Origin: Girardia tigrina
Taxonomy: Eukaryota
Assembly: GCA_001938485.1 (NCBI GenBank)
Contig: MQRK01217620.1
Location: forward strand, 1-64,000
DNA length: 64,000 nucleotides
Direction: 5' to 3'
Part shown: positions 11,888 through 59,484 of the stretch, in pieces
Layout of the letters: every line of letters starts with the position of its first letter
Numbering within the stretch: position 1 is the stretch's first letter
Program-made: the position numbers and the translations under genes
Notes under the pieces: model-generated
What the model was told of the DNA's origin: nothing
Seen by the model: only the letters and a program-made list of their open reading frames with translations
Database searches by the model: none

Positions 11888-13066
11888 CTACAAATTGAAG
11901 GGCTTTAATATTGTAATATTAAAGGAAAATGCATATTCTTACGGTCAAGAAATCGTTTTTATGAAATCACTTCAACCACATAAAACACAGACAGACAAAG
12001 ACGAAAACGCACATGATAATAAAATATATTTAAAAGTGTGAAGGTCAATGTGAAATCACAACTATAGAAGCATCCCGAACCTTTTTAGGACCATCTGCTA
12101 TCACCTCCCCATAGTTTCGCAGTAGACAGAGCGTTAGAAGCGCGTCGAAGAAGCTAAAACTAACGTATAACGGAACAAAACACATAAAGTACCGACAGGA
12201 CTTACACAGTGATCCGAATTGAAGAGTCAGCCCTCCCCTGATAGAGCTACGCGAGAGACACCTGCAACAATAACGCGTCCGAAGATTGCGTCGCCCTAAG
12301 AAAAGTTATTAGCACTGAAGTAGATTTAAATTAATTAAAAACCAGACGAAAAATAACAAAGTCCCTTACTGGATTTTTCAATGAAGCTAGGAGGTCATCC
12401 GACCCTCCCATGAATGAGCATCGTGAGACGAGTCCCTGAATGAAACTCACCAAGTCCTAATACCTTCTTGAGCAGAGATATACCCCTGTGAAAATACGAA
12501 AATTAATTAACAAAAACAAAGCCCAATTAAAAACTCACCATGAATCAAGAATCACCCGAAAATTTCAGCCGAGTCATCGCTGAGGCAGCCGCACACAAAT
12601 GTCCAGATTTGAAGGTGTTCCATGACACACAGGCTAGGAACCTATAATAAAATAAAAAATTTTCAAAAATTAAAAATTCTTAAGAAGACACGCTTACTCG
12701 GCCGTCCAACCAGCATTGTAGAAGTTTCTAGACTTCTTGTTGACAGCAGGCGATTGGTGGAGTTGAGACACCCCTACACGAAACCTAGAATATAAAAGGG
12801 AATCACTTTTCCAGACAGTGCGCACTTATTGACCAACAATTTTATAAAAACATCTTGTTTGAGCTATTATTTGCACACACCAACCTTAAGCAGAATTTCA
12901 AACGCACATTTTGAACGATTCGAACAATTCACATTTTAAGAACATTTCCAAGAGCATTTCCTAGCGCTATTTTGGAGGTTCAAAACTACCATTTGAGAGC
13001 ATATCGAGAGTAGAAATCGACGTGGACGAACATTCTCCGGATCCAGGAAATAAAGCGAATTGTAAT

Positions 13067-15030
13067 TGTTCGGTTTCGTTATAATTGGAATTGAAAAATA
13101 ATTAAAGTTTATGTTTTTTTTGTTAAATTTAGAGTTTTCGATAAAATTAGAATTTAAAAATAAGTAAATTTTATTAACAAAAAAAGATAAAAAAATTTTT
13201 TTTATTGTTTTTAAATGAAAATTAAAACGATATATATATTTATATGGTTATATATATATATTGAAACGGACAAAAAAAATTAAGTTTGTTTTAACGTTTT
13301 AGTTAAAGTTAATCAGTGATATTTAAAAATCTCTCGGTAACTCCGGAGAATTTTGTCGAAGTTGTAATTGTCATATAATAAAAAAATTTGATGAAAATGG
13401 AAATCTCAGTGTTTCGATAACCTGTTTGAGAGGAGAGATTTGTATACGTAAAATATTTGTATCTTTAGAAAATACAAAAGAAGGATCACAATTGAGGAGA
13501 AAATTAGTCAAAAGAAGGAATCGGAGGCAGGAAATTTATCCAAATTGAAATTTAGAAAGAAAAGAAAACCAACAAGGGAGGAAACACAGATTCGTAGTGT
13601 CATGCAGCTTTAAGGTAATGTTTCTTCAGATAAAAATACACTCTGGAGATCGTCGATATTTGCGCCTTCAGTGGGATGACGAAGAGAACGAGGTGGTACG
13701 GTGTGGATCAAAAATCGGTCATGGGAAGGAATATAGTGAAGACGAGAGAGAAGTACTGTGCGAAAAGAGAGTTGATCCTCCTGCGTCGGATCAAGGGGGG
13801 AGTATGTTCGGTTTCGTTATAATTGCAATTGAAAAATAATTAAAGTTTATGTTTTTTTTGTTAAATGTAGAGTTTTCGATAAAATTAGAATTTAAAAATA
13901 AGTAAATTTTATTAACAAAAAAAGATAAAGAAAAAAAAATTTTTTTATTGTTTCTAAATGAAAATTAAATTGATATATATATTTATATGGTTATATATAT
14001 ATATATATTGAAACGGACAAAAAAAAATTAAGTTTGTTTTAACGTTTTAGTTAAAGTTAATCAGTGATATTTGAAAATCTCTCGGTAACTCCGGAGAAAT
14101 TTGTCGAAGTTGTAATTGTCATATAATAAAAAAAAATTGATGAAAATGGATGTTAATTTGGTTATTACCAAAGAATTATTCATGTATGAATTCAAAGAAT
14201 TCGATTATTCAAAGAATTATTCGATTATGACTTTAATGCGGATTATTTTGTAAAGACATTTGTAGTTAATCACATAATAATTCTCAATCGAAAATTGCAT
14301 GTCAAATTTTGTGAAGAAATTCATGATAAATGGTATGAATTAATGCGAATCTTTCAAGGTTGTAGAAACAGTATGGGAACGAAGTCTTGGAAAATAATCA
14401 CCAACAAACACGGTGTTAAACCGACCACTGACGATCACGAAAGCGACAGTGATTCGCGATTGCAGAGATACGACGTTTACGTTACTTCGAGAGTTCATGG
14501 AGAGTGTGCGNNNNNNNNNNNNNNNNNNNNGTTGAATTGTATCGCTCTCGATTACGATCTGATTTCGATTCCTGGGAGATTAATTCAACCGGATTATTTC
14601 GTCGGTGGCTCCTCAAGTGGTTCTAATGATTGCAAAAAAGAGATCAAGTGCTCAGATATTCCCAAATCGGTCGGTGCGCTCGGACGATTACTAAATGTAT
14701 GTCCTTGTATAATTATTGTGTTTATTTATATNNNNNNNNNNNNNNNNNNNNNNNNNNNNNNNNNNNNNNNNNNNNNNNNNNAAAAATATTATCAAAAATA
14801 AAAATAATAAAGATAAAATTAAAAATAATAATAACAATAATAACAAAAACAAGAATAAAAATATTAGTAAAAATGATAAAGATAAAAATAATAAAAATAG
14901 AAAATTTAGTCAAAACATAAATGACGATAAAAATGACATTGACGTAACCGAACACTTTCCTCCCACCTTGGTGACCCGCAGGGGGTCAATATATGATGAA
15001 AGCTTCCACTGCGCTGCTACTGCATCAACA
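13067..15030 (+). mobile_element. Internally deleted BEL/Pao LTR retrotransposon nested in E1
   Basis: TGTT...AACA ends; 5-bp TSD GTAAT (13062-13066, 15031-15035). 13067-13400 is repeated at 13805-14150 (truncated 5' LTR vs 3' LTR), with a purine tract AAGGGGGGAG just before 13805. Internal FKVMFLQIKIHSGDRRYLRLQW is a Pao RT motif. Confidence 0.85.
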
Positions 15031-15193
15031 GTAATTAATTTAGTTACTTTTATTTTTTTATTGTTGCAATAAAATTTTATGATGATAAGTTTTAATGTTA
15101 TTCCTTAATTTTAATTGATTTTAATATATAAACCGAGTTAATAGTTTAAGAGGAGTAGAAAGTAGTCGTCACCGCCGCCGTCCTTCGCTATAG

Positions 15194-15367
15194 ATGTCCC
15201 GAATCGATTTTCAAACGATAGAGCCGCCAGAGTTCGTGGGGGACCATACGGTCCTGATAATCGTTGACATAATGTCAATTTCAATGGAGGCGTTTATCAG
15301 AGGCGAACACAGCGAATCGTTCCTCGACGGACTAGATTCGCCCCTTCACGTGCAGCGAACAATATAG
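15194..15367 (+). CDS. 57-aa small ORF of the long-LTR family (E1 copy)
   Basis: MSRIDFQTIEPPEFVGDHTVLIIVDIMSISMEAF...DSP aligns without gaps to the N-terminus of the E2 ORF (M1,S2,Q7,H18,V20,I23,D25,S28,I29). Below the ORF-track cutoff; translated by hand. Confidence 0.6.
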   Translation: MSRIDFQTIEPPEFVGDHTVLIIVDIMSISMEAFIRGEHSESFLDGLDSPLHVQRTI

Positions 15368-18114
15368 CGACAAAGACGAGGGAAATTCTGCTCCGCCGAA
15401 ATCGGCCGCAAACCTTAACATTTCAATCTTATAAACCAAAAAATTTTATTGAACGTCGTTTTAATTGTTATTAAATCAATATTTAAATTATTTGATGTGT
15501 ATATCTTGATATGTTTTTGAGAAAGTTAATCGACTAGAGATAATGACGACCTTATGTATAGGAAACTTAATTCAGTAGAAAAAAACAATTAAGGCAAATT
15601 ATCCGAGTTGGTCGTGAACGTAAGCATAGCGCGACTTCGATAATAAGGTTCGATGCAAAAAATCGTGAATCTAGGCGAATTTCGATTCCGCGTTGCTAGT
15701 TAAAGGTTGAATTCCGATAATTTAAACAAACGTTTTTTTATGACGTTTATTTATTCATTTATATTTATTTTTATACGCTTATTTACTTTTAACTTAACTT
15801 TATACGTTTACTATTTATAATCGAATTTAACTGGTTTTACTGAAAATTCTGAATATAATTTTATAAAAATAGTTTTATTAGTATTTTAAAAGAAATCGTT
15901 TTATTTTTAAATCACCAATTCGGTAAGCGGGAACTGATTTGGGGAAACCAAGGTTTTAAAGAAATTTATGAAATAAGTAAATGTAGTTTAGGATTTAATT
16001 GGATTGTCACTTAGTAACTGAACGATTTACGATTTAATAACTCCTTGAGAATCGCTTCAGAAAGCGTATGATATGGAATTAATCTAAATAGAACTAATCT
16101 ATTTTATAATATAGGAATATGAAGTTGTATGAAGATGAGGTGAAAATCTTTGAGTAATATTCTTGCTACCAAACTATAGAATATTTCAATATTGAGGTCG
16201 ACATTTTGAGGTTTGAAAGTGGTTCCCAGAACTACCTATTAACTCTGAATTTTATGAGAACATAGTAGGGATAATAAGCATAGTTTAGAATCATCCCCGA
16301 GCGGCGCTCAGCTAGATGGGGGCCCATAGCCAATCCCGTCTTTATCAGAACCCGAAGGTCCTTCAAACCCGGCACTGCTAGGCAGATGTCGGGCGAGAAG
16401 AAACGTCCGACCCATTATATAAATAAATACAAATGAATATCAAAACAGACGTTTGGTTGTGGCTGACCCTTAATAGCCACTGGGGGCTCAAGAGCTTTCA
16501 AAAATGTTTATGCTCGAGAGTGTCGTGACAATATTCTGTCTTAAGAAAGAAAATACTAATAAAACTCACCGGATTAAAATTTATATTTATGAAAAAAAGC
16601 TGCTCAAATTAGACCTAATGAAATTCGAAAACATAAAAAAACAATAATATCTAAACAAATTTCCTAACTATTTAAATTTAATAATTGTTGATGTGAAAAA
16701 TAAATAGAAATGCACTTGTATAAATTTTCACGAAGATTTGTTTTTATTTTTTCAATAAATTTGATTTTTAAAATAGATTTTATTTAGAAAATTTGAAAAA
16801 TTTGTTAAAATTTTAAAACCATTGCGGGCCGCGAGTTTGACATGCCTGTTCTATATCATTAAAATCACTTTGGGGTAAACGAAATATCGTTTCCTCACTT
16901 ACCCAAATTTTAAATTCAACCCTATATGGTTAAGGGTTTCAACGAAAATCAGTTGTAAATATTTTTGATTTATAATTAATATTTTTATTTAAAAGTACTT
17001 CTTAGTCTTTTAATTGTAGTGTTATTCTATAAATCCCTTAGATGCGCCAACAAAAGTATAAATCGGAAGAGTTTATATTTTTAAATATTAAATTATATTG
17101 TCTATATAAATAAATAAAGAAAATAAGAAAAGTTTAGATATATCTAAAGAAAAGCAAATTTAGATTAGTTAGAAGAAATAACAAATAAAAGAATAAAAAT
17201 AATAAATAAAAATTATTTATAAAGAGAAAGTAATTAAAAAAATAGAATATAAAAGGTGTTGGAAGTGCTGTTTGAAAGCTAGAAATATAACATAAAGGAA
17301 AATAAACATAGTTGAGAAAAACTCACCCGATGACGAAAAATCGACCAACCGCCCCGCCACAAGCATGAAACACGGCAGGGTATCCGCGAGGGTGACCCAT
17401 CGGTGACTGAAGGACTCACGAATAGAGACAATAAACCTTAACAGGAAAAAGAATTAATTAAAACAAACCCGAAAAATAATAAAGTTTCTTACCGAAACAC
17501 CCTGTGGAGCTGAGAGATCATCCGACCCCCCCGCATAGCCCCTCGCGAGGCGGACCCCTGAATGGAACCCGTGGAACGCTGGTCGATCCTCGATAGAAAT
17601 TATTCACCCTTAAAGAAAAAAAATTAATTAAAAACCAGACAAAAAATAACAAAGTCACCTACTGAATTACCCAATAGGGTTAAGGGGTCAACCGACCCTC
17701 CCACGAAAGATCTTCGCGCGGGCAATCCGTGGACGAAACCCGCGAAGTCGTAGGACCACCCTGAGAAAAGTTATAGGCCCTGAAAGATCAAACAATTAAT
17801 TAAGAAAAATAGAAAATTAATTAATCTTACCATGAGTCAACCCAGAATCCGAAAATAATCGTCAGCTGACGAATCATCCATGAATCAGCAGCAGGCATGT
17901 TTCAGAGATTTGGGAGTGTGTAAAGACACAGGAGCATTGGATCCTATAATAAAATAAAAAAGTTTTAAAATTTTCGAAAAATTTTCGAAGCACACTTACC
18001 AGTCTAACCAACCAGCATCGCAGAAATGTCAGACAGTTGGTTGGCGAGATTCGGTTGGACAGAGGAGGACGACAGGATAGCATATCTACAATATAAAAGG
18101 AAAATCATTTTTAA

Positions 18115-18391
18115 CCTTCACTCTGTGCATTGAAAATTTTCCGGCGTCTGTGCATAGGGGTCAATCGTACCCCATATACATTTTGATATATTTTGTAAGG
18201 AAAACTAACAAAATTTTAGTTTTTATTTAAATTTTTATTAATTATAATAACTTATTAATAACAAAAGATTATTAAACTTTAATAAATGAAATTTATTAAG
18301 CTTTGGCAGTTTAATTTACTTGGCTCAATTTTTTTTAAATCGCTTTTTAAATAGACTGGGGTCCATTTGACCCCAATGCACAGAGTGAAGG
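18115..18391. mobile_element. piggyBac-type MITE inserted just downstream of the E2 TATA box
   Basis: Perfect 18-bp TIRs CCTTCACTCTGTGCATTG / CAATGCACAGAGTGAAGG; TTAA TSD on both sides; subterminal GGGTC...ACCCC palindromes. Confidence 0.9.
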
Positions 18392-18836
18392 TTAACGAAG
18401 TCGCACAATTTTTATAAACAAATCAAACCCACGTGTGCCGTTACAACAACTATTAGAAACCAACCGCAATCTCCCGAGCGATATTCAAAACAGAGTTTAC
18501 CGTACCGACAGACGTCCCGAACTCATAACTCGACCCACGACTGAACGCTTCTACGTACAGACGCATCGACTGGTGAAGATTATTAGGCACCGATTAAGCA
18601 GTGAATTTCCCAGCAGACCTTCGGATACCAACCAAATTGTAATTGTTTTATTGATAATCTTGTTGATTTTATTAATCTAAATAAACAAATTTAATACCGA
18701 TATTCCTTTAGTTATTAATAATTATTCAGAATGTTTAATTAATGATTAATTTACATACCGTACATCCGTTTTTATTGTAAAGTAGATCCAGTAGAGTCGT
18801 CGTTACAGTCGTCGTCGCCGCCGCTCCTTGCCGTAA

Positions 18837-19175
18837 ATGTCCCAGACTAGCCTTCAGCCGAGTAAATCGATCAGGGTCGAGGACGGTCACATTGTCATAA
18901 TGATCATTGATGCGGGATCGATACAATTAAACCATGTATCGGAGGCGACCGCGTTGAACGAATTTCCGGTAGAGCGAAGCCACGAGTTCACGTCCGAACC
19001 CGATAGTCCCGCTGCGAACAACGTCCCCAGCGCTGAACATCAACTGGTTATCATCGACGTGAAGTCGATATCGATAGATGACATGTCGGGACTGACTAGT
19101 TCCCGTGTAAACGATAACCCACCGATGTGGGGTGAAAACGTTCAAATCGGCGCCTGCGACCTTCAGAATATTTAA
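18837..19175 (+). CDS. 112-aa small ORF of the long-LTR family (E2 copy), motif duplicated
   Basis: Contains HIVIMIIDAGSIQL and HQLVIIDVKSISI; preceded by the conserved GTCGTCGCCGCCGC leader. Confidence 0.6.
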   Translation: MSQTSLQPSKSIRVEDGHIVIMIIDAGSIQLNHVSEATALNEFPVERSHEFTSEPDSPAANNVPSAEHQLVIIDVKSISIDDMSGLTSSRVNDNPPMWGENVQIGACDLQNI

Positions 19176-21757
19176 ACAAATACATTTTTTTACTATTCTA
19201 GGTCTTATTATGTTATGAATTTAGGAATTGTTATTGTTTCGAATTTAGAATTATTACAAAAAACTAAAATTATTATCGAATTTTATGAATGATTTAATTA
19301 ATAAAATTTCCATTTCTACTGTTATTATGAATTTTACCGGATTCGGAATTTTTAAGGAAAACTAAAGCTCTATGAATAGTTTAATTTAATTATGATTTTA
19401 GGAATTAGGATTATGATTGATCTAATTTTTGGAACTAATAGAATTCTATCATTTACTATAATTTCACAGGAAATAATTTTACTACATAAACCGTTTACTG
19501 ATCTTATAAAAAACCAAACTTCCACTAATTTTATTTTGATACTAATTTCGACTCCGACCGTTGTGAATAAAATTTAAAATTTCTATTACGGAACAACCTC
19601 CATTTCTATACAATGATAAATATTTCGTAAGTTTAAATGTGGGAGTCGACTAAAGAGGTTCGGGATTGAATAAAATCTTAAAGCAAAATTTAATTTTATC
19701 ACTGATGTCACAGCAATTTGGTCTTGATTTGGTGATTTGCGATGAATTTTGGTCTTATAATTGGATCTGACGATTTTTAACGTACAATTTTAATTTAATT
19801 CTAGGTTCGAGCGAATTTACCATCAACAACCTTATACTTAAAACCCGTGAGTGTTAAGTTTGCCGATGAAATTGCTATTAGCAGTGCCACTTGTTACAGT
19901 AAAATTAATTGACTGCAAATAGATTTACTAATATGAGTTAGCGCTAGTTATTATAATTCTCAATTGAAACCCTAGCAAATCAAGGTGATTCAATTAAAAG
20001 GCTAGTAGTTAAGGTAGCGATATGTATCTGAAAGGACCTCCTAATAATAAACCCTATGACAACAACATGTGATGATGGCAAGAATACATAATGGTACCAC
20101 GTTACAATTCGATCATTTGGGCAGATAGTAAGCTGTGCCATCTAGACAAGCATAAGTGATGCATTCACCGGAGGAATATACAAATATACAGAGTGGTAAC
20201 ATACTCTTATCGATACTGACCCAGGTGGGGGGCCCATAGCCTATCCCATCTTTAGCCGAACCCGAAGGCCCCTTGAGCTTGGCACTGCTAGGCAGATGTG
20301 AGGCAAGACATGAGGCGTCCGACCCTATATACAATGTCATTAAAACCGAAATAAATTTAGAGCGGGTTGTGGTTGACCCTTAACAATCACTGGGGGCTCA
20401 TGAGCTTTTAAAAATGTTTACACTCGAGAGGGTCGTGACAAAGGTCATTATTAATTATGAAAGATTCAGATTTTAAAGTTCAAAACCTAACAAAAGTTAT
20501 TTTGAAATTCGATCAAGAGTGAATCTGATTGTGCGTCTCAGTAGTTAATTGAAATTAAATCTGATTACGCGTCTATACTAAGACTATATTGCGAACTGTT
20601 TTGATCAAATTTCGATTGCGAATTCGATACTTAATAGTATAAAAGTCGACATTCACTAGAGACAAAAGCAGAAAAAAATCAAACTATTGAGTCGGTAGAA
20701 GAACGACTGAATACGACCAAAATTGAGATGCATAAACCCATATTCCTAATATATTATATCTCGTTATATAAATCACGCTGTAAAGTGTGAAACAAAAGTT
20801 TTAAAATATAAACAATCCGAGTTGTCGTTAAGGTTCTCGGTTTTTAAATATAAAATCGACCAGGGGTCAAATAAAATATAATTTTCTCTTTTACTTGTAA
20901 TTAAATCGTGAATACTAAAATATATTTTTATAAAGAAAAATCACTGTGTTCTATTATTGATTTTTATAAACATACCAAACACTCAACAAATAGTATAAAC
21001 AAATAAAATGCAAAATTGCGGAAGAAGCGGAGGTGGTCAATCTGGATAGCCTGCATTAATACAATTCTGTTGGTACAGCGCACTCTCCGAAAGACGCCCG
21101 GAAGCCTATGAAATCGATCGAAAACCGTAGATGTTAAATGGTTAAATTAACCCAGATTTCGAATAATGGCGATTTTGATTTTTCCTACACGGAATTTCAT
21201 GAAAAATTTCATGAAAATTTCAATATTATACTAATTTATTTGATAAATGACGATTTCTATCATTTATTTCTAATTATATTTCTAAAAATCAATTTAGGTT
21301 AAATTTGCAAAATTTCGTTATCATCTGATTCACGGTTTTTCAGTCAAGCTCAAATTTTACTATGATCAAATATATGCTGATAAAATGAGAAATATTAGAG
21401 AAAAATGTCAGTAAATCCGCGTAAAGTTGAGATAACTCAGCATAGTCCGCATCTGTCTGTACAGCGCCATTGCCGAAAGGCCCTGGGAGCCGATTTATTT
21501 GACTGACTGTTAAATATCCATAGAATTCAAAACAATTGATAATAAAGTATAATAATTACGATTTAAAATAGAAATTTTAATTTAAAATAATAAAGAAATT
21601 TAAATTAAAATAATTAGAAATTTTAAATTTTAAATAGAAACTTTCAAAGTCGAAAATTCAGCTCACCCGTCATGTATGATCGGTATTTTTCCAGTAATAG
21701 AATAAAATTTTTTAAGTAATTATTTTATAATTGTTTTTAAAATGTAAAATTGATTAA

Positions 21758-29172: not shown

Positions 29173-31642
29173 TCTGAGAATATATTTTTCATACGTTTTG
29201 TTTCTTTGTTTATATCTAAACCTTTCCTTTTTCTTCCTCCACCACCTTGATCCATTATTGAAACAGCCTCACGAAAAGCACCTTTAGCATTGGACTTAAT
29301 TTCTGGTAATATATCAGCAGCAGCTTCCTTCAATATGTTACGACACGACATTTATATCACCTTACATATAGCACAAAGAATAAGGGAATAGTCTAACTCG
29401 ACTATTCCCCAGTATGTTTAGATAGGCCCCATCTAACATAGTTAACCTCATGAACCTTAAAGGCTCAGAAATACCACGTCAGACGGAGCCGAAGACTCGA
29501 ACCACTGCCAGATGATCGTAACTCATGTGAGGACCTTAAGAACCCTATAAAATAACAGCATTATTCAAATACCTTAAATTAATTAATAAAATTAATTACT
29601 GGAAAGTGCAAGCGCACTAGAGACCCGTGAATCAGCCATCTGCTGACTTCCGCGACAGTTGATGATAGGCAGCCTCGGATCGCGAACCTATAAACAAAAT
29701 AAATCAGAAAAACAGAAAGACCCCTCCCAACGATACCTTTGTAAACATGATAACCACAGACGGACGTCGGAGAATTAACGACAACGGCAGCGACATCCTG
29801 GACGAGTAACCTATAGATTAACAGATGTCAGATAAACAGTCGTCAATGAAAATGTCTAGCTTGCAATGATGATTTCCCCCGTTCCTCCCACTGAAAAATC
29901 CTGTCACTGAATAGCGGATAAACATCTGTCACACCTGTTGTTGATATTTCGCTGTAGATGAGCAATTTTATCATACAGTAACGACCCCCTCCCTTCCATC
30001 TTATCACTTAACAGGATATCGGCGAACAAACACATGTCAACAGACACATACAGATTACCCGAACGCGTCGGACAACGTATGCGTCTAATTAGATATAAAT
30101 ACTCGATGCATCTTTGCATGCAGGCACACAAAAAACGCACCTTTTACCAATATTTACGCACTTTTATACTACAATTTTATTTTACAATTTATAATCATAA
30201 ATTTGAACTATTCCTGACGATTATATCACGCAATATTTACTATCTATCAATAAAACGGAACAATTAGTGACTAGCAAGTATGATCTGTTCTTGAGTTTAA
30301 TTTTAATTTTTTATTCTGTTTATTATATTCCATTCTCATTTGATTTATACTCTCATTCATTTTGTTATTATTATCTCTTACAAACATTAAATATAACTTA
30401 TTAAAATTATTCCTTTTATTTAATCCGTATTTGGTTAGGAGTTCAGTAGATTTTATTAGAGCTATGTACTGCTACTTGATTAATTAGAGGTTCGAAAATA
30501 TTGAAATTTATCGCTGGTCTCTATCTACCGCTCCATGAGGGGGTTCCGAAGAGGAGTTTTGAGATGAATAACGATCTTAGATTGAGTACTGATCGTGTGA
30601 GAGACGTGACGAAAAGGGGTAGAGGTATGACAGGTGAGTGTGGCACACTGGCAACAAGAGAGACCGCGATGTAAACGTCGAGGTCTTATGTGTACATAAT
30701 GTAGATAGAACTTCAAATAATATGTGGTAGAATGGTTTGTCGAGTTGTTTTATTTAAATTCCTCCTTAATTGGAATAATTCTAGTTTCGATGTAATTTCT
30801 ACACTAAGAATTATTAATAACTTTTCTTGAACAAAAATAATTCAGCGGATATGTGAATCCTAACTATCGTTCTAGTTTAGTTTGCGCTTAATCTCAATGT
30901 AAAAATTTATTTAAATGAATTACCTACGGAGTATTTCATGATGAATAATAGTAAACATTATATACACATTATAACTATAAACATATTCGAAAATCCATAT
31001 CTTAGTGATAACGTCGTGAATAAAATGAAGACTAAAATAAATTGAGAATCGTTATTATAATCAATGAAAACTATTGGTAGTGACGAAGAAGCTTTTGGAG
31101 ATGTCGAAGGTCGATCACGAAAGTTCGATTGTCGCCTATTTCCTCGAGGCTCTCTTCGTCTGACGTAATTAATAAATGAATACATCAAAGTACTTACGAA
31201 TAATGGAAAACAATATCAACCCCTCGGGCAACACCCGTTACTGGTTAGAACCCGAAAGCGCTCCAAAGCGCATAAAACTTGTTGATATGTGTGGAGCAGG
31301 CGCGTCCGTTCCCTTAAGTAACGAATTCAAAGCGTGCATGAGTTGCCGTTGAACTCAAAAAACGGATGGGGGCTCTGAGTCAACAAAAATGTTGTCGAAA
31401 GAGGGGAACGCGACAAATGCTTCAACAGGCTTTTTAGTACGATTCAAGATATTTTTACCAGCACGTAATATTGCTTTACCAGCAATCTTTGCTACAGGTA
31501 TACCGAATTTCCTCATTATAGGAATTGCCTATCTGCCTAATGTAGCCTTCCAATTACCTCCATACCGTTTACCTCTAAAGTATGGAAGATTACCACCCTG
31601 TAGAGGACCACAATACATTCGTACAATATCTCTATCAATCAT
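29169..31642 (-). pseudogene. Polinton basic core (pVII-like) protein split by E3 (31642-31416 plus 29335-29169)
   Basis: The joined halves read MIDRDIVRMYCGPLQGGNLPYFRGKRYGG...KPVEA-LKEAAAD...DQGGGGRKRK...NIFSE*, with QGG/GG motifs. Its stop overlaps the MCP ATG (ATGA). Confidence 0.7.
29336..31415 (+). mobile_element. E3: divergent 2.08-kb solo-LTR-like element
   Basis: TGTTACGA...CGCGACA ends; TSD AATA/AATG (1 mismatch). Removing it restores the Polinton ORF. TATAAATA at ~30094; 3' end shares GAACCCGAA, GCGTCCG and TGGGGGCTC with E1, E2 and E4. Confidence 0.8.
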
Positions 31643-32569: not shown

Positions 32570-34562
32570 AATCGGGACCGGAGCGTCTAACAATCAACCG
32601 ACGAGCAAGCGATTCATAACCCGAAAGCGAGAACCCGAGAATTTCCGGCGCTAGGACGAATACCCGATTCAGAGCTAAACTAACGCCAGGGGAACCCAAT
32701 TACGCGTTGATACACGAAGTCCGACTACATTCCTCCGCGACCGATTTTTCTACTGGGCACAATTGTTATTGTCGATGTAAATTTAATTTTTGTATTTATT
32801 TGTCGTTTTATTATGAATTTCAATAATTTATATATTTATGAGTTTTGTTTATTTAACATTTTATTTAATCATACTCTATAGAAGTAGCTTACCTTTTCAT
32901 AGAAAGAATTAAATAGCGCCGTCGCCGCCGCCGACCGTCGTTCCCGTTATGAATTCTCACGTTACGAATCCACTTATCGAGCGTCTAGAGAATATTCTGG
33001 GGCTCCTCCCCGAGTCCGAGGTAGATGAGAACAACAATGCATTCCGAGCCGCATTGCCACTAATTATTATCGACGTGAGGTCGATAGCCCTGAGCGAGAT
33101 GCTCGAGTCGACTGGGCCGCACCATTTAGACTAACGGCGCGGAAGCTGCCCATCAACATTATGACTTAATAAATAAAGTTTTATAAACCGCAGTTTAATT
33201 CTTTCGTTCGATTTAATACTTACTTCAATTTTGTAACTTTAGGAATTTTATTAGTGAATTTTTATAATGAATATTAACACAAGTTTTGTTATTGAGTCTT
33301 TAATATTAGTAGTGAACTTGAATATCAGTTTTATTAATGAATGTTCGAGAGTATTTAATAGACGTGAAAACAAATTTAATTCGTGAATATGTAAGGGTAT
33401 TTAATCAATAATAAGCGGGAGTATAAATTTGCTAGCGAGTGTTTAGAACTATTTTAGCGCAAATAAGAAGCTCGAGTGAATTTTGTATTTAGTTTTTTTG
33501 TGTTACTAACAGCTCCTCTCTTAATTATTTTAATCAGAAAGGTTATAAATACCTTGGTTCGTAAATCCCGCAGTAACTCATCAAACGTTATGAATATAAT
33601 CCGTTCAACGGCAAGTATCATTTAAAATATTACTTAAGGTCGTTGATTAAAGTAAGGCATTAAAACAAATGCGAAGTCAGTCAATTTTAAGAAATTCGTC
33701 TTTTACTGATAGTTTTTCTTTTGCGATTTGATTACTATCGAGAGGTATTTCATAAAAAAAATTTTTTATATAAATACATATAAATCATAAATTGAGAAGT
33801 TTTACAGAATATTCTAACATTGGCCGAACGGAACTTAAATTCAAATTATCGTTAAATTCTTCTAGTTTCCTATTTTATTTTAATGATTTTACCACTAATA
33901 TTTTGGCGGGCTTCTCGACTCAATTAACAATTGTTAAGAACCAAGCGATAATTCCAAGGTTAATTCAATTTAAAACTCAGACGTTATCTGAGTTTCATCG
34001 AGTCATGCAGGGAAAAGCGAATTAAAGGGTGGGTATACTCGTGAATAGTTTAACGAGTTAAGCAATAATAAAATTTCAAGAACCGCCGATGTTAAGGAAC
34101 AGATTTGACAACAGGGCGTGAGGCGTCTGCTGTCGATAGCTGACCGATAAGATACTGTCGTACAACAAATTGAGTGGTGCGGATCTATTATACGGTTATA
34201 GCGAACCTTGACAACTTATATGTTTGAGCGCGTAAAAGTACAGAAATATTATCTCATAAAACACAATAGTACCACGACACATAAAGGTATAAGATACATC
34301 ATCCCCGAGCGACACTTTGCTAGGTGGGGGGCCCATAGCCCATCCAATCTTTACCCGAACCCGCAGGCCCTTCAGACTCGGCACTGCCAGGCAGATGTCG
34401 AGCGAGAAGAGGCGTCCGACCCATAAATAACTATATTGCATCATTGAGTATTAAAAAGTAGCATACGAATAATATAAACTGAAATCGGGTTGTGACTGAC
34501 CCTTAATAGTCACTGGGGGCTCCGAGCAAACCAAAACTGCTACAAACAAGTGGGTCGTGACA
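32570..34562 (+). mobile_element. E4: 5'-truncated copy of the long-LTR family
   Basis: Contains the sORF (32949-33134) and the conserved 3' region ending GGGTCGTGACA. Confidence 0.8.
32949..33134 (+). CDS. 61-aa small ORF of the long-LTR family (E4 copy)
   Basis: LIIIDVRSIALSEM motif; GTCGCCGCCGCC leader just upstream of the ATG. Confidence 0.55.
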   Translation: MNSHVTNPLIERLENILGLLPESEVDENNNAFRAALPLIIIDVRSIALSEMLESTGPHHLD

Positions 34563-34595
34563 AATCTCACTGGTCCGTTCATCGGGCACGCCATT

Positions 34596-35114
34596 GAGGA
34601 CATCGGATTTTTCTTCGACCTGCATCATTGTGACACTCGGATCAATTTTAGGTGGAAGTGGAATATGAATTTGATATTTAGCATGGTCGATTTCCACTCT
34701 CATTCTCTCTTCAATGTCGGTTGGAGCGACAGTTTCAGCCAAATCAACGAAAAATTTAGCAAATTGTTTCACATCAATAATATAATTAGGTTCTTCACTG
34801 TCAGCATTAATAATTTTTGTGCATCTCATTTCTTGCAAAGGATGTCCGCTCGATAAACAAACTTTATCCGCAACCAAGTCCCATAAAGCCGGCGCTTCTA
34901 ATCCCGTGTCCGATTTCTCAACTCCCGCCAATTCATTGACTCGTTTCAAGATACTTTGATTATCATCTTCACATTGTTTTATTTCTTTACTATATGGCGC
35001 AGCACCATAAGTTTTCAACAAGGCAATAATATCTCCTTCATCGAGCGATTTAATTAGTTTTTTATCCTTATCATCTTTTAATTTTCTCTGATCATTTCCC
35101 AGATAATCAGGCAT
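34596..35114 (-). pseudogene. PSMC2: Truncated 26S proteasome ATPase subunit 7 (Rpt1) N-terminal copy
   Basis: [86 protein letters not shown]. Stops before the AAA domain, has substitutions at invariant residues and is intronless over this span. Confidence 0.9.
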
Positions 35115-35443
35115 TTGCTCAATAATATCTCTTTAAAAAATGGCTGCTTTTAACTCAAATTCAAAATATCACTGCACCAAAAAATTTATTTATAATCAAA
35201 TTAATAATATTATTCGATTAAAACAAAATCGAATTAACCGAATATTTTTTTCGGAAAAACAAATCAACACCAAAAAAATCATTATCATTTAATTCAAGTT
35301 ACTCCCAGATTGGCCAATCTATTTTTAGATTGGCCAATCGTGGGTCGTCTATTTATAGACCGAATTTTGAGTAGAATTCCGTTCCACAGTGTCATTAAGA
35401 AGAGTTTCAGGGTCACAAACATCCAATAGATATATATATATTC

Positions 35444-37280
35444 CGTGGTGTGGATTTCATTCTAGTTTATTTGGATGACATTCTCATCGGCAGCGAAAAC
35501 ATAGTGGAACACAAAACACACCTTGCAACTAGATTACAAATCCTTAAGACGAACGGGTTAAATCTCAATTTAAAAAAAATGTGAATTCAACAAAACTCAA
35601 ATCAATTTCCTTGGACATACGATCGAGAAGAATACAATCTATCCTATCAAAGAGAAAATCGAGGCAATAAATTCAATTCCACCTCCCAAAAATGTTCAAG
35701 AAATCAGAAGATTTTGTGGAATGGTAAACTTTTACCACAAATTTATTCCAAATTGTTCAAACATCCTAGCTCCACTCACTGACATGATTAAGAACAAAAC
35801 CAAACTCCAAATAATTCATTGGACAGAGGAATCGATCAAAACATTCAATCAAATCAAAGATGAATTAAATAACATCACAAAATTACATATGTTACAACCA
35901 GATAGTAATCTAACGTTAACCATCGAATTTTGGGATAGGTGCAGCTTTAACACAAACTCATGACAACCAAGAAGTTCCAATATCATTTTTTTCGCAAAAA
36001 CTTAACAAAACGGAAAGTCGTTACTCCACTTTTGATCGTGAATTGTTAGCAATACACAGATCAATCAAACACTTCCAAGATTATCTTGAACATCTAACTT
36101 TTACAATTAATACAGATCACAAACCTTTGACAAATGCATTAAACTTAAAAAATCCAAGTCCAAGACAACTTATACAAACATGTTACATCTCACAATTCAA
36201 CTGTAACATAAAATACATACCAGGTAAAACAAACATCGTGGCAGATTTTTTGTCCAGAAATATGGTTACTACAATAAATTTTTTCAATTTTTTAGACATT
36301 AAAGATTTAGAAAATAAACAAGACTCCACAATAATCGAATGTAAAGACCAATCTTTCATCTTAAAGAAAATTAAAAACATCTGGTACGACAAGTCAATAA
36401 CGGGAACCATTAGACCATTAATACCTGAAGAATTAAGATCTTTATGCATCAAAAACATCCACGAACTCGGACACTATGGTTTCAAAGCAACTTACCATAT
36501 ATTAAAACACCAAGTCTGTTGGAAAAATCTCAGAAGACATAAAACAATTCATTCGAAACTGTACCATTTGTAACAAGAACAAAATAACCAAGAGACACCC
36601 TATAAAAAAATCAATTACGTTGAATTAAACAAATTAGAACATTTACACTTAGATCTAACAGGTCCACTTCCACCAAACAGAAATTATAAATACTTATTAA
36701 CAATCATAGATAGAACAACCAACTGGTTCGAGATCATCAAACTCAAAGATATCTCTGCAAATTCCATCTGTAACAAATTCGAATCAGAATGGATAGCACG
36801 CTATCCACCACCAAAAAGATTAATTACAGATCAAGGGAAACAATTTTTATCAAAACAATTTCAAAATTTATGTGAAAAATTCAATATAAGGAAAATTAAA
36901 ACAACTTACAATCCACAATCAAACGGGAAAGTGGAAATTTTTCACAGATATTTAAAACAAACACTACGAACAAAATGCAACAACTCAGATTGGCTGGAGA
37001 CTTCCGGAAGTTTGTCTTGCACTCAGACTCAAACCAAATAGTCTTGATGATAAATCACCTTATGAGAAATTAGTTGGAGTAAGATTCAATTTTGAACTCT
37101 TTAAAAGAACAAGTGAAGAACATTCCAACAGCACTAACAAACAAACAGACGCAAAAACAGCATACGTCAAAATACAAAATACTAAGGGTTTTGACGATAG
37201 ATACGATGGGCCATACAATATAATTAAAACAGGCAAGAACACAGTAACACTCAATATAAACAACAAAGATAAAACGTAAA
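35444..37280 (+). pseudogene. Ty3/Gypsy pol remnant (RT, RNase H, integrase)
   Basis: VYLDDILI, RFCGMVNFYHKFIPN, RYSTFDRELLAI, TDHKPL, HELGHYG, HLDLTGPLP, ITDQGKQF, YNPQSNGKVE; frameshifted. Confidence 0.92.
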
Positions 37281-37345
37281 ATCTACGAAATATCAAACTA
37301 AACTAATACACTTATTGACACTCCGTTTTCCCAGGGGGGTGCTAA

Positions 37346-37992
37346 TGTAATAGTCCACCGGTAAAATTAGTGTATTTTTTTTAACTTTTCAACTAACGAT
37401 GTATTTTATTTTTTTTTACATGTGCTTTCATCTGACTTGTAACTCGTGTGATGTTTATAATTGTTCCATGTACTTTTATTTATTTGTTTCGTTTTTATTT
37501 CCTGTATTATTTTTTGTTTTTTATTTATTTATTTTATAAATGTCGAAGTCAGGAAGCAAAAGGAGGTCACCATGCAGAGGTCGCGAATTGAAATTATATA
37601 ATAAAGAAATAAAATTATATAATAATCATAACTTACTATGGTTATGAAAATTTAAAAATTCAAATTGATCAAACAATCAATTAAATTTCAGAATTATAAT
37701 TACCAGATAATAAGTTTATTATTCATTATTAACTGAATATCACGAGCGAATTATTTACTATTTTGATTATTTTTGGCGACCCAACGATAATTATACGTTA
37801 TTTACTTGTGAGACAGATATATGTGATTAAATATCTCAAGCGAATTATTTATTATTTTGACCAAAAAATCGAAAATCAAACAATCAGGAAACCCATCACT
37901 CTAATAACAATTATATTATTTTTTACTGGTGAACTATATTCATACTATTACGGTATTTTTGACTAATTCGTTAATTTGTTATACCAGTTACA
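37346..37992 (+). mobile_element. 3' LTR of the Gypsy element
   Basis: PPT-like AGGGGGG at ~37333 precedes TGTAA; candidate end TTACA at 37992; internal AATAAA. Confidence 0.6.
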
Positions 37993-40039: not shown

Positions 40040-41501
40040 TCGGACTTTAGGTAATTTTTACAAGGGGAAGTATAGCAAAAATATAGTGCATAGCTCGGCT
40101 GTTCGGACCTTACGTCCGTACTAATCAGAAGTTACTCTCTGATAAAATTCTCATCGGCGGGATACATTCCCGAACTAAATACAACTTCGGAACCTTCCTC
40201 GTCGGGATTATTGCTTTTACGATTATTTTGGGGCATAGCTAATGGGTGACGACGACTGGGACGACGACAAGACCTAACTTTACTCGCTGAAACTAAAATA
40301 GGTCAGAATTTATTTATTAAATATATATTAAAAACAATTTACAAATTTATACATTTATTGCAAGACTATTAAAATATAAAATTCAATACGAAATCCCGTA
40401 AAATTACATTAGATTTAAATTTGATCTCCGGAGGAACGAATTCGCAAGTGGCTTGGGTTTCGTAGAATGATTCTCCAAATTAAATTAATCTGATCGTTCT
40501 CGTCAAGGTTCCTGTTGAATCTTGCTGTCTTTAATTTATGGTTCTCGAATTTGTGTCTTTGAATTACGTCTCAAATTTTCGTCTTCGAAATACGTCTCGG
40601 CTTTGTGATCTATAAATAACTGTCGTTTTTTGTTGTCAGATTTTGTGGGCGCTCTGATGAAAAACGATTCTTCTTTTATACTGTAGAGAAAAATGTTTGT
40701 TGCTTCTTCTTGGCCAATCAGGTTCTGCCAAGTACTCGTCTGAAAATTCTGCGATGCTGGTTGGTCGGGCTTGACGGTATGTCTTCAAAATATTCTTAAA
40801 ATTTTTATTTCATTTGCTTGCTGGTGTACCGCCGCACACTCTAGAATTTTTAGAGTTCGTGTGTGGCCGCGTCACCGATGATTCATGTAGAATTGTCAGC
40901 TGGTTGCTATTCTTGGAGTTACGGCTGACTCAGGGTAACTTTGTTTTTCTTAATTAATTTTCATATCTTTACAGGGTTATATCTCCTTTCGGAAATCTGT
41001 CAGTGCTTCACGGGTTCCACCCAGGGATTCACTTCACGAGGGACTACACGGGGATGGTCGGTTGACCTCCTAGCTCAAATGGATAGTTCGGTAGGCGACT
41101 TTATTTTGAGTTCATTTTTAATTAATTTTTGTTTCTCTCAGGATTCATACCCCTTCTCACAGCTCTTCCACACATTAACGGTTCGTCTCCAGGAGTGCGT
41201 CTCTTCTCACTCTATCTGAGGTGGGATGATTGTCCGTCTCTTTCTATAGGGTAAGTTTTTATTTGATCTCGTCTGATTTTCTTTATATCGTATTTTATAG
41301 CTCTACTGCGGTGTCTGCGTCATTTTATCAGTCTACGAGGGTTCGGGATCCTCTTCACAACACTAGTGGGATCAACCAAACTTTGTATTGAGCTTTTTAA
41401 GTATATGTATCGTATCAAAACCATTTTCTTCTTTTCTTATATAACGTAGTCGTATATTTAATCCTAATACTGTCTAGTTCAATGAATTTCAGACCGCAAC
41501 A
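40040..41501 (-). mobile_element. E5: inverted, 3'-truncated copy of the long-LTR family
   Basis: TATAAAAG on the minus strand at ~40680; exon/intron array on the plus strand homologous to E1/E2; disrupted sORF from 40236 (..RE*LLISTDVRS); candidate 5' end TGTTGC at 41501. Confidence 0.75.
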
Positions 41502-44423: not shown

Positions 44424-47404
44424 TATATATCAATAAATATCAACAAAAACAATTAACCCTCACTTTCATATGGGTTCGTGGTGTTAATTTCTTTTTGGTG
44501 TCTTTATACGAATTTATCCGCTTGTTTCTTTTTGTACAACAAAAACAATTTTGAAATTGTCAATTCAAATTAACGTTAATTTTAATCAAGTTAACAAACC
44601 TCAACTAATCACGTTGAATTCGAATTGTCCAATGGGACAAGTGAGATGCATCAAATTCTCTCTCTATTAGCGTTTGTGCGTGCCTGATTGTCGATTGGCG
44701 AGTGTGTGTGTCAATCGACAGAGTAAGAGAAGACAGGAAAAAATGATTGAAAATCACAACTTTTTGGTTAAAATTTATATGATTCGAGTTTATTGATTTC
44801 ATTTTCTCGAATATTTTCGACTGATCTTTATTTTATCGATTGTTATAATTTTTGTCGATCTGAAAACGTTATCAGAAATTTTGTGTTGAAATTTTTTTGT
44901 GAACAATTGAATTGAAGGATTATTGGAGCCTACTTTTTGTTTGTTTGAGTGAATTTCAATACAAATTAACGATTTGGTGTTGATAAAAAAAGGCAAATCT
45001 ATGTTTTGATTGTCCTAGAAAAGTCGATCAAGTTGATTGTTGAAGCAAATTCGTTGTATTGAAACGAAATGATATTATTGCAACGAAATTTGTAATTTTC
45101 TTTTACTTTTTAGGGAACAGATTATTTTAAATTGAATGGCCACTTCGAAAACAATTGATGTATATAGAGTTGATATCTGTTGATTAAAAATAAACATTTT
45201 GTAAACGAGTTAAATATTTCTGATTCTGAAAAATGATCTCTTCGATGAACAATATGAACACGATTAATAAAAAAATGAAGCATTCAAACAATCTTTTGTT
45301 AACATTGGCCCAGCACACGAACACCGAAAAAGAACGATTGCGCAATGACGCCACCTCCGTCAGATTCTCGGGGCAACCTGAGGGTCGGGCGGAACAGTTT
45401 GCTTAAAAAAATTACTCCTTAAATAATTTTTAAAAAATTAAATAATAAAAAACGAAACAAATGGTGTGAATACCATGTGACAGTATTTGATTGGACGATT
45501 TTGTAACGTGATATTTGTTTTTTGGTCGAATAGTGAATCGATCTATTTTTCTGTTAGACGTTGTTTAGTAGAAATACTTTAATAAAATCTTTTTAGGTGC
45601 GTATTTTTGGATTTGAATTTTTTCAGTGGCCATATTGTTTTATTACTTATTCAATTAACATTTATTTGGAAAAAAATCAAGTCGTCAATAAATTTGGCTA
45701 TTATTTTTGGGAGAATGTCGATAATTTGAGAGATGAGACGATTCGTATCCAAACGACAATTCGTCGATAATTTACGGGACAATATATTGCTGGTTAAGAA
45801 ATTAATGAGACTATGATAATGAGTCTAAAGCGAAAAAAGAGCTCAAAGATTAATTTCTGTTAAACAGGTAATTAAGGATGTATTTCCGACCATCATGTTA
45901 GAATCATTGGACACAATACATTTTATTTATACTTTTAATTTTTGTAATTCGTATCGTGTGTATTTTTAGGATGTGTTGTAGTACTGTGGTTTTTAAAAAA
46001 AAACTAGTGAACATATTTTGGGAACTGAGTTATTTGACTTTGAACCCCGGGTTATCGGTAACCAACCGTAAGATTATATTACTGTAATCTCCGCGTGTGT
46101 ATTTTAGTACTTAACCCTGTATACTTAAGACCAAAACTTGCCTCTCAACCACCATACCATCTGCAAGCAGTGATAGATGATGAGGACCTTCCAGGTTCCA
46201 GACCTACACAGGTTTAAGACCAGATAGGCCAGATCAGCCCTAATGGGTATGATGTGATGTTATGATTGAAGATAATTCGTATTAATGTATTGACCCCAGG
46301 ACGTGATATTGTGTGTTCTGTATTCGTGTGACATTCCCCCTAGCAGATGAAAGATTACGACAACAATCCGTTTATCATGAATTTATTCATTACGATTTAT
46401 TTACAAAAGTCTGAACTCGAATACCCTGACGCAAATCATACGTTTATGTGTGTGATTTTGATGTTAAGACGTGGTGATATGATGAAGAAAGAGATGCTAG
46501 ATAATTTTAACTATTGTGTGCTGGCTATATTTTAAAACAACGAATCAACAACTCATATAAATCAGACCAAAAAATTATTTATTGAAACACTTTACGACAT
46601 TAATACTCTTGCAGATCCTCTGCTGCTGTCGCCGTTGTATATAATCATCGCCCCTGTACTCGGCGATCGACCACTGCGTTCCTAAGGTGCGTGACTCCTT
46701 TCCTTGTGTGATTTTAACTGAAATTTGCTCAGTTTATATACTGAGTTCTTCGTTGATTTTTTCTGCGTGTCCAATTCTTACTGGTCCAAGTTCGTTTTGG
46801 AATCGTACGATCGGTACCTATTGGAACACGCCAGTTACTAATTTTAAGCTTTCTAAAATTAAAAAATTCTAGAAAATTTTGGAGTAATGACTAATGGCAA
46901 AAAATACTTTTATTTTATTTTTTGTTTTAATTTTACTTTTCCATCATGTTTTATTTTCCAGATTTCTCCTCTTCTAAAATGCGGTTGTTTAATCACATCA
47001 ACGGATCGGATGAGTGACGATCATTTACGCGCGGAATTCAAATGCCAATTCCGAATTCCATCGAGAAGTTTATTATGCTTTTCTATTATTCACAATATTT
47101 TTTGCCTCACGGAGCCAGCAAAATGCATCGGCCCGCCTCTGAGACAGTCTGGAGGAGAGTTGGGGTTTTATTTGTTTAATATGTTTCCATAAATTCGATC
47201 GAATGATTAATTGCAATTTTACGAATTTTGATGAATGTATCACTTTTCGTTCGCTTCTTCTACGTTTTTACGATATTTATTGCGTTTGATTTTGGTGTGA
47301 ATTTTTGGATTATTTCTTACGTAAATCGGTTGATATTTTGTTATTTTTGTCGATCTTTGAATAAATGAATTATTATTATTTCTTTCTGAATTTTCCTTCT
47401 TCTA

Positions 47405-58225: not shown

Positions 58226-59484
58226 TTGGTTTGGCCAAAAGTCATTGCATTTTTGAGTACGTCCTAATAAAAAGCTTGAAAATATAAAACGATGTGATAA
58301 AATTTATATTCAATTATATATTCTGAAAACTTAATTTTCAGACTATGTTTATACAAAATATTAATTGATTTTGATTTAATTTCTTACTTTACCGTCAATT
58401 TGAAATGGAAAATCAAAATGAGCATATTCGTCATGTTTTGTTGCATTATTTTCGCAAAGGGAAAACCGCTGTGCAAGAAGATATGTTTTGTATGTGGTAG
58501 TGACTCCTTAAAACTTCGACAGTGTCAATACTGGTTTTCTAAATTTCGTTCTGAAAAATTTCATCTGAAAGATGCACCACGCTCTGGTCGACCAGTTGAA
58601 GTCCATGGCGACAAAATAACAGCACTGATCAAATCTAATCCACATATGACGACAAGAGAAGTTGCAGAGACTCTGGAAATATCAAAATCAAGTGTTGGAA
58701 GTCATTTAAAGAAACTTGGATTCGTCAGTAAACTCAATATGTGGTTACCACATGAACTGAAAGAAATTCATTTGGTGAAACATTTGCGATTCCCTTTTGA
58801 AGCGAGAACAAAGTGATCCATTTTTGAAGCGCTTGATTACGAAAAATGGATTGTCTACAACAATGTGGAACGCCGACGATCATGGACTAAACATGGCGAG
58901 CCTACCAAAACGATCCAAAAAGCAGAAATTCACCAAAAGAAGGTTATTCTTTGCGTCTGGTGGGATTTTAAAGGAATTGTGTTTTTTGAACTCCTTCCAA
59001 GGAATGAAACCATCAATTCAGACAGATATTGTGGTCAGCTGGAGAAATTGGCTCATTCAATTCAACAGGAACGTCCTGAATTGGCAAATCGAAAAGGAGT
59101 TGTTATTCAGCATGATAACGCAAGACCGCATACAAGTTTGACCACTCGCCAGAAACTCTTATCACTGGGTTGGGAGGTTTTACTGCACCAACTGTATTAT
59201 CAAGACTTGGGCCTATCGGGATTTTACTTATTTAGATCACTGCAGAATTCCTTAAACATAAAAACATTCGCCAGTGATGATGACATTATATCGTTCCTAG
59301 ACGGCTTTTTTGCTGACAAAGGCAAAGGTTTTTATGAATCAGGAATAATGAAGCTACCGGAAAAGTGGAAGAAAGTGATTAAAAATAATGGACAGTATAT
59401 CATGTAAAAATATTTGTGCATCCATGTCATTTTTTGATAATAAATATTTTAGTAAAAAACGCAATGACTTTTTGGCCAACCCAA
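58226..59484 (+). mobile_element. Full-length but frameshifted mariner transposon
   Basis: TIRs TTGGTTTGGCCAAAAGTCATTGC / GCAATGACTTTTTGGCCAACCCAA; TA TSD. Confidence 0.95.
58405..59407 (+). pseudogene. mariner transposase, disrupted
   Basis: DAPRSGRP, WLPHEL, KVILCVWWD, HDNARPH; degenerate YSPDL motif; frameshifts. Confidence 0.92.

Follow-up and report, generated by a model that had tools for sequence, protein, structure and literature searches.

A conserved RNA fold with tRNA-Pro complements at the LTR ends of Burro-type Gypsy elements, a likely primer-tRNA dock

Avian sarcoma virus forms U5-IR and U5-leader stems, and its terminal U5 bases are held in a helix; we know of no second site for the primer tRNA in this virus. 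According to the available sections of PMC11181671 and PMC3185550, the primer activation signal (PAS) in U5 of HIV-1 base-pairs with the primer tRNA's T arm, and a structured template lies just ahead of the PBS (primer-binding site) of HIV and avian viruses. The U5 of avian sarcoma virus pairs with the T loop of its primer (cited in the available part of PMC3185550). For Ty1, with its boxes 0, 1 and 2.1, and for Ty3, with its bipartite PBS, excerpts of PMC3592414 and PMC5371799 describe extra pairing with the T and D regions of the primer, and Helenus TRIMs carry tRNA-derived sequence inside the LTR (excerpt of PMC10886601). Extended primer-template pairing has been worked out for a few retroviruses and for yeast Ty1 and Ty3; animal Gypsy elements are little described in the literature searched.

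The locus considered here lies in a 64-kb stretch of Girardia tigrina DNA, hereafter the window. Three divergent LTR subfamilies (A, B and C) keep both a pairing pattern and stretches that match tRNA-Pro, so the RNA likely folds into a dock for the primer. With moderate confidence, we propose that the last 240 nt of the LTR, before a tRNA-Pro PBS, form this dock and would thereby control the start of reverse transcription. By analogy, the domain is best read as working like the known extended primer-binding domains, namely the HIV PAS, the avian U5-T-loop pairing and the Ty1/Ty3 boxes.

The comparisons that follow draw on the same partial texts. Like the HIV-1 PAS/PBS segment, the domain has an upstream U5 motif facing the tRNA T arm and a structured template before the PBS that overlaps the integrase end, but it adds a D-loop complement, a second 9-nt site, a compact pseudoknot and a long-range helix ahead of the PBS. 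It resembles avian sarcoma virus in setting U5 against the T loop and in holding terminal U5 bases in a helix, whereas the avian primer is another tRNA and the avian domain is far smaller. Ty1 and Ty3 share the extra pairing with primer T and D regions, and Ty1 has a pseudoknot near its PBS; however, their short PBSs are completed by distant or downstream boxes, while here the PBS is a full 18 nt and the extra motifs all lie upstream in the LTR. Helenus contains a sense, tRNA-like promoter unrelated to its own PBS. Here, in contrast, the primer is matched by short antisense motifs, whose lack of collinearity with the tRNA rules out a decayed tRNA copy as their origin. The literature search, which did not extend to the original Burro genome paper, its supplements and two Ty1/PAS primary papers, yielded no description of the LTR-end structure or of a second tRNA-end site beside a pseudoknot. 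The available portions of PMC8532177, PMC13238120, PMC11410931 and PMC13273307 do not mention the structure.

The elements are Burro-type giant Gypsy retrotransposons, a membership that follows from domain architecture and not from sequence comparison with the named Burro-1 to -4. They show TG...CA ends with a target duplication, a tRNA-complementary PBS, and LTRs flanking gag, protease and reverse transcriptase (RT), as Ty3/Gypsy elements do, and the LTR-internal-LTR arrangement is seen in L122/L123. Alignment of upstream flanks gives LTRs of ~2-4.6 kb with 4-bp target duplications; the duplication is exact in 5 of 24 stretches and matches at three of four bases in 3 more, E1 comes in addition, and the remainder have no usable start. 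Domains found in the internal regions of subfamily A are a Ty3-type capsid, a zinc knuckle, a ubiquitin-like domain, a fusion glycoprotein, a protease and RT, with the capsid, ubiquitin and protease matches below Pfam cut-offs. In contig C231567, the fusion glycoprotein (PF24664, E 3e-81) lies upstream of the protease in one ORF, accompanied by a weak PF00240 match. This contig also encodes a Ty3 capsid, the protease (below cut-off) and RT, and stops inside RT; at least 21 kb, gaps included, separate its PBS from the contig end (20-25 kb for the Burro internal region). A MATH ORF is found 1.3 kb after the PBS in subfamily C.

The available part of PMC6431247 describes Burro as giant Gypsy-like LTR retrotransposons of planarians, present in thousands of copies with long LTRs, and encoding a Gag zinc knuckle, a ubiquitin/SUMO-like domain, a fusion glycoprotein placed between gag and protease, RT, plus a MATH accessory ORF. 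The present elements are alike in domain set, glycoprotein position, MATH ORF, LTR length and thousands of copies. That description, in the same part of the paper, concerns proteins only, with no LTR RNA structure, PBS or LTR-encoded ORF. Homologues of gag in other species were absent among the longer proteins searched, and a search with the MATH ORF found one matching protein.

The E1 stretch that was originally flagged recurs in the 64-kb window at 20228-20441 and 34298-34564, in a diverged form at ~31215-31415, and on the minus strand at 45974-46253 (Table 1). E1 is flanked by identical 4 bases at 11933-11936 and 16531-16534, with no PBS after it. The motif before the LTR end occurs four times at up to 2 mismatches, against 0.37 expected; three occurrences are exact, one per A-type copy. 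In the host genome, which is AT-rich and 1.43 Gb in size, three queries gave 2941, 2400 and 1473 first-look candidates, 40 of which were scored per query. No PBS was present in 26 of the 27 first copies viewed. Most copies run instead into unrelated DNA and are therefore solo LTRs. The thousands of solo LTRs, E1 included, are passive remnants. A non-LTR, DNA-transposon or MITE origin was considered in view of those 26 copies and was ruled out by the PBS-bearing ones. The 5' part of another LTR of the same family lies at 40700-41500 (minus strand) of the window.

Table 1. Features of the 64-kb window. E1 feature coordinates were read by hand from position rulers; paired cells are listed for subfamilies A, B and C in that order.
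Feature	Position	Strand	Remarks
E1	11937..16530	+	Solo LTR, Burro-type Gypsy, subfamily A; internal duplication and two assembly gaps; start common with L044/L050
Predicted LTR promoter	12791..12797	+	TATA box; CCAAT-type box about 40 nt upstream
E1 short ORF	15194..15367	+	57 aa; motif hhhhD-x-x-SI
D box	16289..16298	+	Complement of tRNA-Pro D loop; unpaired in the fold; putative pairing with tRNA
Hairpin H1	16314..16341	+	Paired cells 778/827, 410/457, 241/250
T box	16348..16354	+	Complement of 5' strand of tRNA T arm and of T loop; unpaired in the fold; putative pairing with tRNA
Long hairpin H2	16358..16404	+	Internal loop and two bulges; many double changes; paired cells 537/563, 306/327, 167/174 (lower stem) and 828/890, 416/459, 217/222 (upper stem, one unpaired position omitted in C)
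P1, 5' strand of terminal helix	16405..16413	+	Paired cells 685/727, 416/469, 180/200 (94%, 89%, 90%)
H-type pseudoknot	16454..16480	+	Stem 1, 16454-57 with 16466-69, paired cells 297/315, 267/278, 93/100; stem 2, 16459-64 with 16475-80, paired cells 468/480, 219/233, 121/124
Second site	16481..16489	+	Exact complement of last 9 nt of mature tRNA-Pro; abuts pseudoknot
P1, 3' strand, and LTR end	16520..16530	+	Integrase attachment end; LTR end 16530; E1 substitution at 16521
E2	17257..20440	+	Subfamily A solo LTR with tentative start; flanked by identical 4 bases, 17253-56 and 20441-44
E2 short ORF	18837-19175	+	
E3	29336..31415	+	Solo LTR, subfamily B; target duplication 3 of 4
E4	32570..34562	+	LTR without 5' part, subfamily A; start approximate
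E4 short ORF	32949-33134	+	
E5	45974..46253	-	3' domain of subfamily C LTR; absent from the preliminary description

The preliminary description had placed the LTR 3' end next to where a PBS would lie, and a real PBS is indeed found there: 30 copies that have TGG soon after the LTR end were retrieved, and 12 of them go on to carry one common 18-mer. This 18-mer, a few bases after the LTR end, is the exact complement of the 3' end of a host tRNA-Pro gene plus CCA; the PBS has 160 and 42 genomic matches. One subfamily B LTR (L133; G000:C175996, 601-626 and upstream) extends the PBS by a 37-nt read-through copy of tRNA-Pro(AGG), its length counted by eye, that includes the non-encoded CCA. In this copy, the element's enzyme copied tRNA-Pro. 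Across 91 copies, 0-4 variable bases stand between the PBS and the leader; they vary among the copies of one subfamily, which is what untemplated additions during plus-strand transfer would produce. A role of the D box in selecting the tRNA-Pro isoacceptor was examined in 60 of the 160 and 30 of the 42 PBS matches and rejected, there being no clear subfamily shift between PBS endings and the junction base being noisy. The CGG-type endings divide into 19 A, 3 B, 6 C (one resembling B by eye) and 2 unclassed of 30, and the TGG/AGG-type endings into 33 A, 7 B, 18 C and 3 unclassed of 61. Four further LTR ends (L141, L153, L291 and L316) carry the same tRNA-Pro PBS, fall outside subfamilies A-C and have no obvious second site. 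The same purine-rich tract precedes the LTR in L033 and L311; L311 also has a PBS after it, which suggests a tandem with a shared LTR.

For the fold, 249 BLAST clusters were reduced to 226 anchored copies, to 196 once short, N-rich and mis-anchored ones were dropped, and to 153 without near-duplicates (81 A, 47 B and 25 C). Folded separately, the three subfamilies of this set share one fold, with differing letters, over the last 240-290 nt of the LTR. It consists of H1, a linker that is unpaired in A and B and partly paired in C, H2, the 5' strand of P1, a variable spacer, the pseudoknot, a small hairpin and the LTR terminus. P1 pairs with the last ten LTR bases and encloses the spacer, the pseudoknot and the small hairpin. 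The first hairpin, the near-invariant 7-mer (16348-16354), the long hairpin, the terminal helix and the pseudoknot all lie where the preliminary description had put them. Its suggestion of a long-range helix that surrounds the pseudoknot and engages the terminal bases agrees with the folds of the three subfamilies and with the pairing counted in a mixed alignment. It held the long hairpin to be replaced in E3, but subfamily B, to which E3 belongs, keeps the one found in E1, in a register different from that given earlier.

Double changes hold the fold across the three subfamilies, and 44 of them occur in pseudoknot stem 2 within subfamily A. The mixed alignment comprises 37 copies, 33 of 40 drawn at random (7 dropped) plus E1-E4; 89.8% of its 1369 cells are paired and 235 are double-change cells. 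None of 500 shuffles, which ignore kinship, reaches this level, and slid controls reach 35-48%, in an alignment with nine truncated B rows, where stem 1 and subfamily C are shifted out of register. Unguided RNAalifold on the same alignment keeps H2 and stem 2, leaves P1 out, and pairs the T box with the second site. Five of the nine P1 pairs change on both sides in the mixed alignment, through few independent events. The paired changes that had been reported for this helix lie mostly between subfamilies, with 0, 7 and 0 double-change cells inside A, B and C. The terminal pairing had also been proposed for individual copies; in single-sequence folds it forms in E3 and E4 and partly in E2, but not in E1, in which the substitution at 16521 breaks the helix (the minimum-energy fold of E1 alone lacks P1, with z -2.05 and an equal score for the reverse strand). 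E3 itself is decayed and has lost part of its first hairpin to a deletion. The terminal helix is maintained in an additional subfamily, as C, with other letters, keeps it in 180 of 200 cells. At varying pairs G-U is commoner than A-C, indicating that the folded strand is plus-strand RNA; the opposite orientation is ruled out by the PBS, the ORFs and the G-U pairs. We note that the conserved domain can serve as a marker to find and classify these LTRs, the other 2-4 kb of which diverge fast.

As in a PAS, conserved motifs outside the PBS are complementary to the T arm and D region of the primer. This complementarity was absent from the preliminary description, which offered no function beyond structure. 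The second site is the best conserved motif of the domain, is identical to the first half of the PBS, and holds the sole 6- and 7-mers that half of the copies or more have in common in A, B and C alike. Its first bases are free and its 3' half lies in the small hairpin; the first base is invariant, has no partner in the fold, and faces the last base of the tRNA. The duplex with the tRNA end scores -19.1, -18.6 and -19.0 kcal/mol in the three subfamilies, compared with about -10 for shuffles. The D and T boxes are also among the most conserved motifs, the T-box core 5-mer being present in 88%, 81% and 88% of A, B and C copies, and D-box variants mostly still fit the D loop through wobble or one bulge. 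Among 14 tRNA genes, tRNA-Pro(TGG) is the sole one enriched in all three subfamilies (coverage of 22, 21 and 19 nt, against 5-6); coverage as high as 18 nt is seen for other tRNAs, in one subfamily only.

Taken separately, the second site is strong; the D box and the T box give a modest signal, and each by itself lacks specificity. Their duplexes exceed those of shuffles by only about 1.3-2.6 sd, 11 of 15 tRNAs fit the T-box core, and threonine tRNAs bind the D box of subfamily B as well as proline tRNAs do. For the tRNA D region, the leader of subfamily A is a better partner than the D box (-16.7 vs -14.9). Because the motifs are invariant, pairing with the tRNA is not amenable to a covariation test.

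On the primer-dock reading, the predicted promoter would place the domain and the PBS in one RNA, since it lies 620-850 nt into the 5' LTR; in 10 LTRs the TATA/CCAAT arrangement recurs at this distance from the 5' end. A hairpin with the leader would at first hide the PBS of the genomic RNA. The tRNA, by its free 3' end, would dock at the second 9-nt site, and its extension from there would be blocked by the pseudoknot immediately ahead; Gag/NC would then shift it to the full PBS. Once opened, the T arm and D loop of the tRNA may pair with the T and D boxes, and P1, a few bases ahead of the primer, would be the gate for initiation. More tentatively, the pseudoknot and second site could be a parking dock, in which the primer or a second tRNA is stacked in a non-extendable state and handed to the PBS at particle maturation. 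The second site bears on the open question of how primer tRNAs are chosen and loaded, and what prevents them from firing too soon. With covariation from thousands of diverged copies, the initiation complex can be given a testable model, for a giant element that carries env and has shaped the genome of its host.

The same conserved shape admits another function, which we regard as unlikely. H1 and H2 keep their shape, bulges and internal loops while the letters change, as protein-binding elements do, and the fold might mainly be a packaging or dimerisation signal recognised by Gag. The tRNA would then only bridge two genomes, much as Ty3 dimerises through its tRNAs (excerpt of PMC5371799), or the small hairpin over the second site, near-palindromic in many copies, would pair two RNAs. 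Such a role is compatible with primer docking; on its own, it leaves unexplained the complements to three separate tRNA segments and the invariant, partnerless first base of the second site.

It is still less probable that the motifs pair inside the element's own RNA, the T or D box with the second site or the second site with a freed leader strand, and that only the PBS touches the tRNA. RNAalifold joins the T box and second site by 3-4 pairs, and in the absence of tRNA the PBS start is predicted to pair with an anti-PBS strand of the leader in 59 of 64 copies. Nested cofolding with tRNA-Pro(TGG) also places the 5' half of the tRNA on the leader in 55 of 64 copies, but this method cannot represent crossing pairs and is therefore no test of box pairing. 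The internal pairings are short and contain interruptions, whereas 9 of 9 positions match the tRNA.

An internal ribosome entry or nuclear export element, serving ORFs downstream of a 1.4-3.7 kb leader, has little to recommend it. In its favour, the domain stands well downstream of the predicted promoter and follows a short ORF, and the multi-domain fold includes a pseudoknot. Against this, no ORF starts directly after the pseudoknot, the conserved letters indicate the primer tRNA, and Rfam gave no match among 4227 models at gathering level in the window and no IRES or ribozyme match at E up to 5 in four copies, with a single unrelated weak match. A new class of self-cleaving ribozyme is the most improbable reading, despite the compact pseudoknot, the invariant unpaired bases and the ribozymes, including hammerhead motifs, known in other retroelements (available part of PMC6431247), as those Rfam searches are negative, the tRNA accounts for the invariant bases, and cleavage here would separate the PBS from the strong-stop DNA template.

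The primer-dock motifs are also seen outside the host. A metagenome contig of 7977 bases from another organism contains a repeat of about 800 bp in two copies (L330, L331); the element has a standard tRNA-Pro PBS, and in both LTR copies the second site, the T box and the D box all lie at most 130 nt from the end. The element was found by a pattern that requires the second site, and it has no clear pseudoknot and an ambiguous terminal helix. One of the three metagenome loci with the double-site pattern is a tandem-repeat false match, and viral contigs gave 0 matches to that pattern. If the parking dock were real, two-site primer loading could be common to a wider clade of tRNA-Pro-primed Gypsy elements across animals. 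Among 14 retrovirus-type tRNA-Pro control records, which are close kin and of which 7 have only 105-145 nt before the PBS, none has the second site, and the T box and a D-like box each occur in one. We take these 14 records to be of gammaretrovirus type. The lack of a second site in them is in line with the available part of PMC3185550, which states that MLV has no described extra primer contacts.

LTRs encode a short peptide, seen in subfamily A only, mostly of 57-112 aa and usually located 1.3-1.6 kb before the LTR end. Besides the ORFs in Table 1, it is present in L008-L010, L018, L019, L025, L034, L049, L127, L292 and L324. The peptide has no Pfam match, and the literature search produced no description of it. 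Only a near-invariant L[VI]IIDV.SI motif stands out from its otherwise divergent sequence, and E2-type copies carry this motif twice; of 21 motif matches, one is unrelated. The motif presumably resembles a SUMO-interacting motif. Elsewhere in the window, a MITE at about 18111-18395, with ~20-nt inverted ends and TTAA on both sides, lies just after the E2 TATA box. An unrelated broken Gypsy pol (RNase H and integrase) occupies 35500-37350, a mariner transposase lies in pieces at 58301-59407, and an ORF resembling proteasome subunit PRS7 (34503-35132, minus strand) abuts the end of E4.
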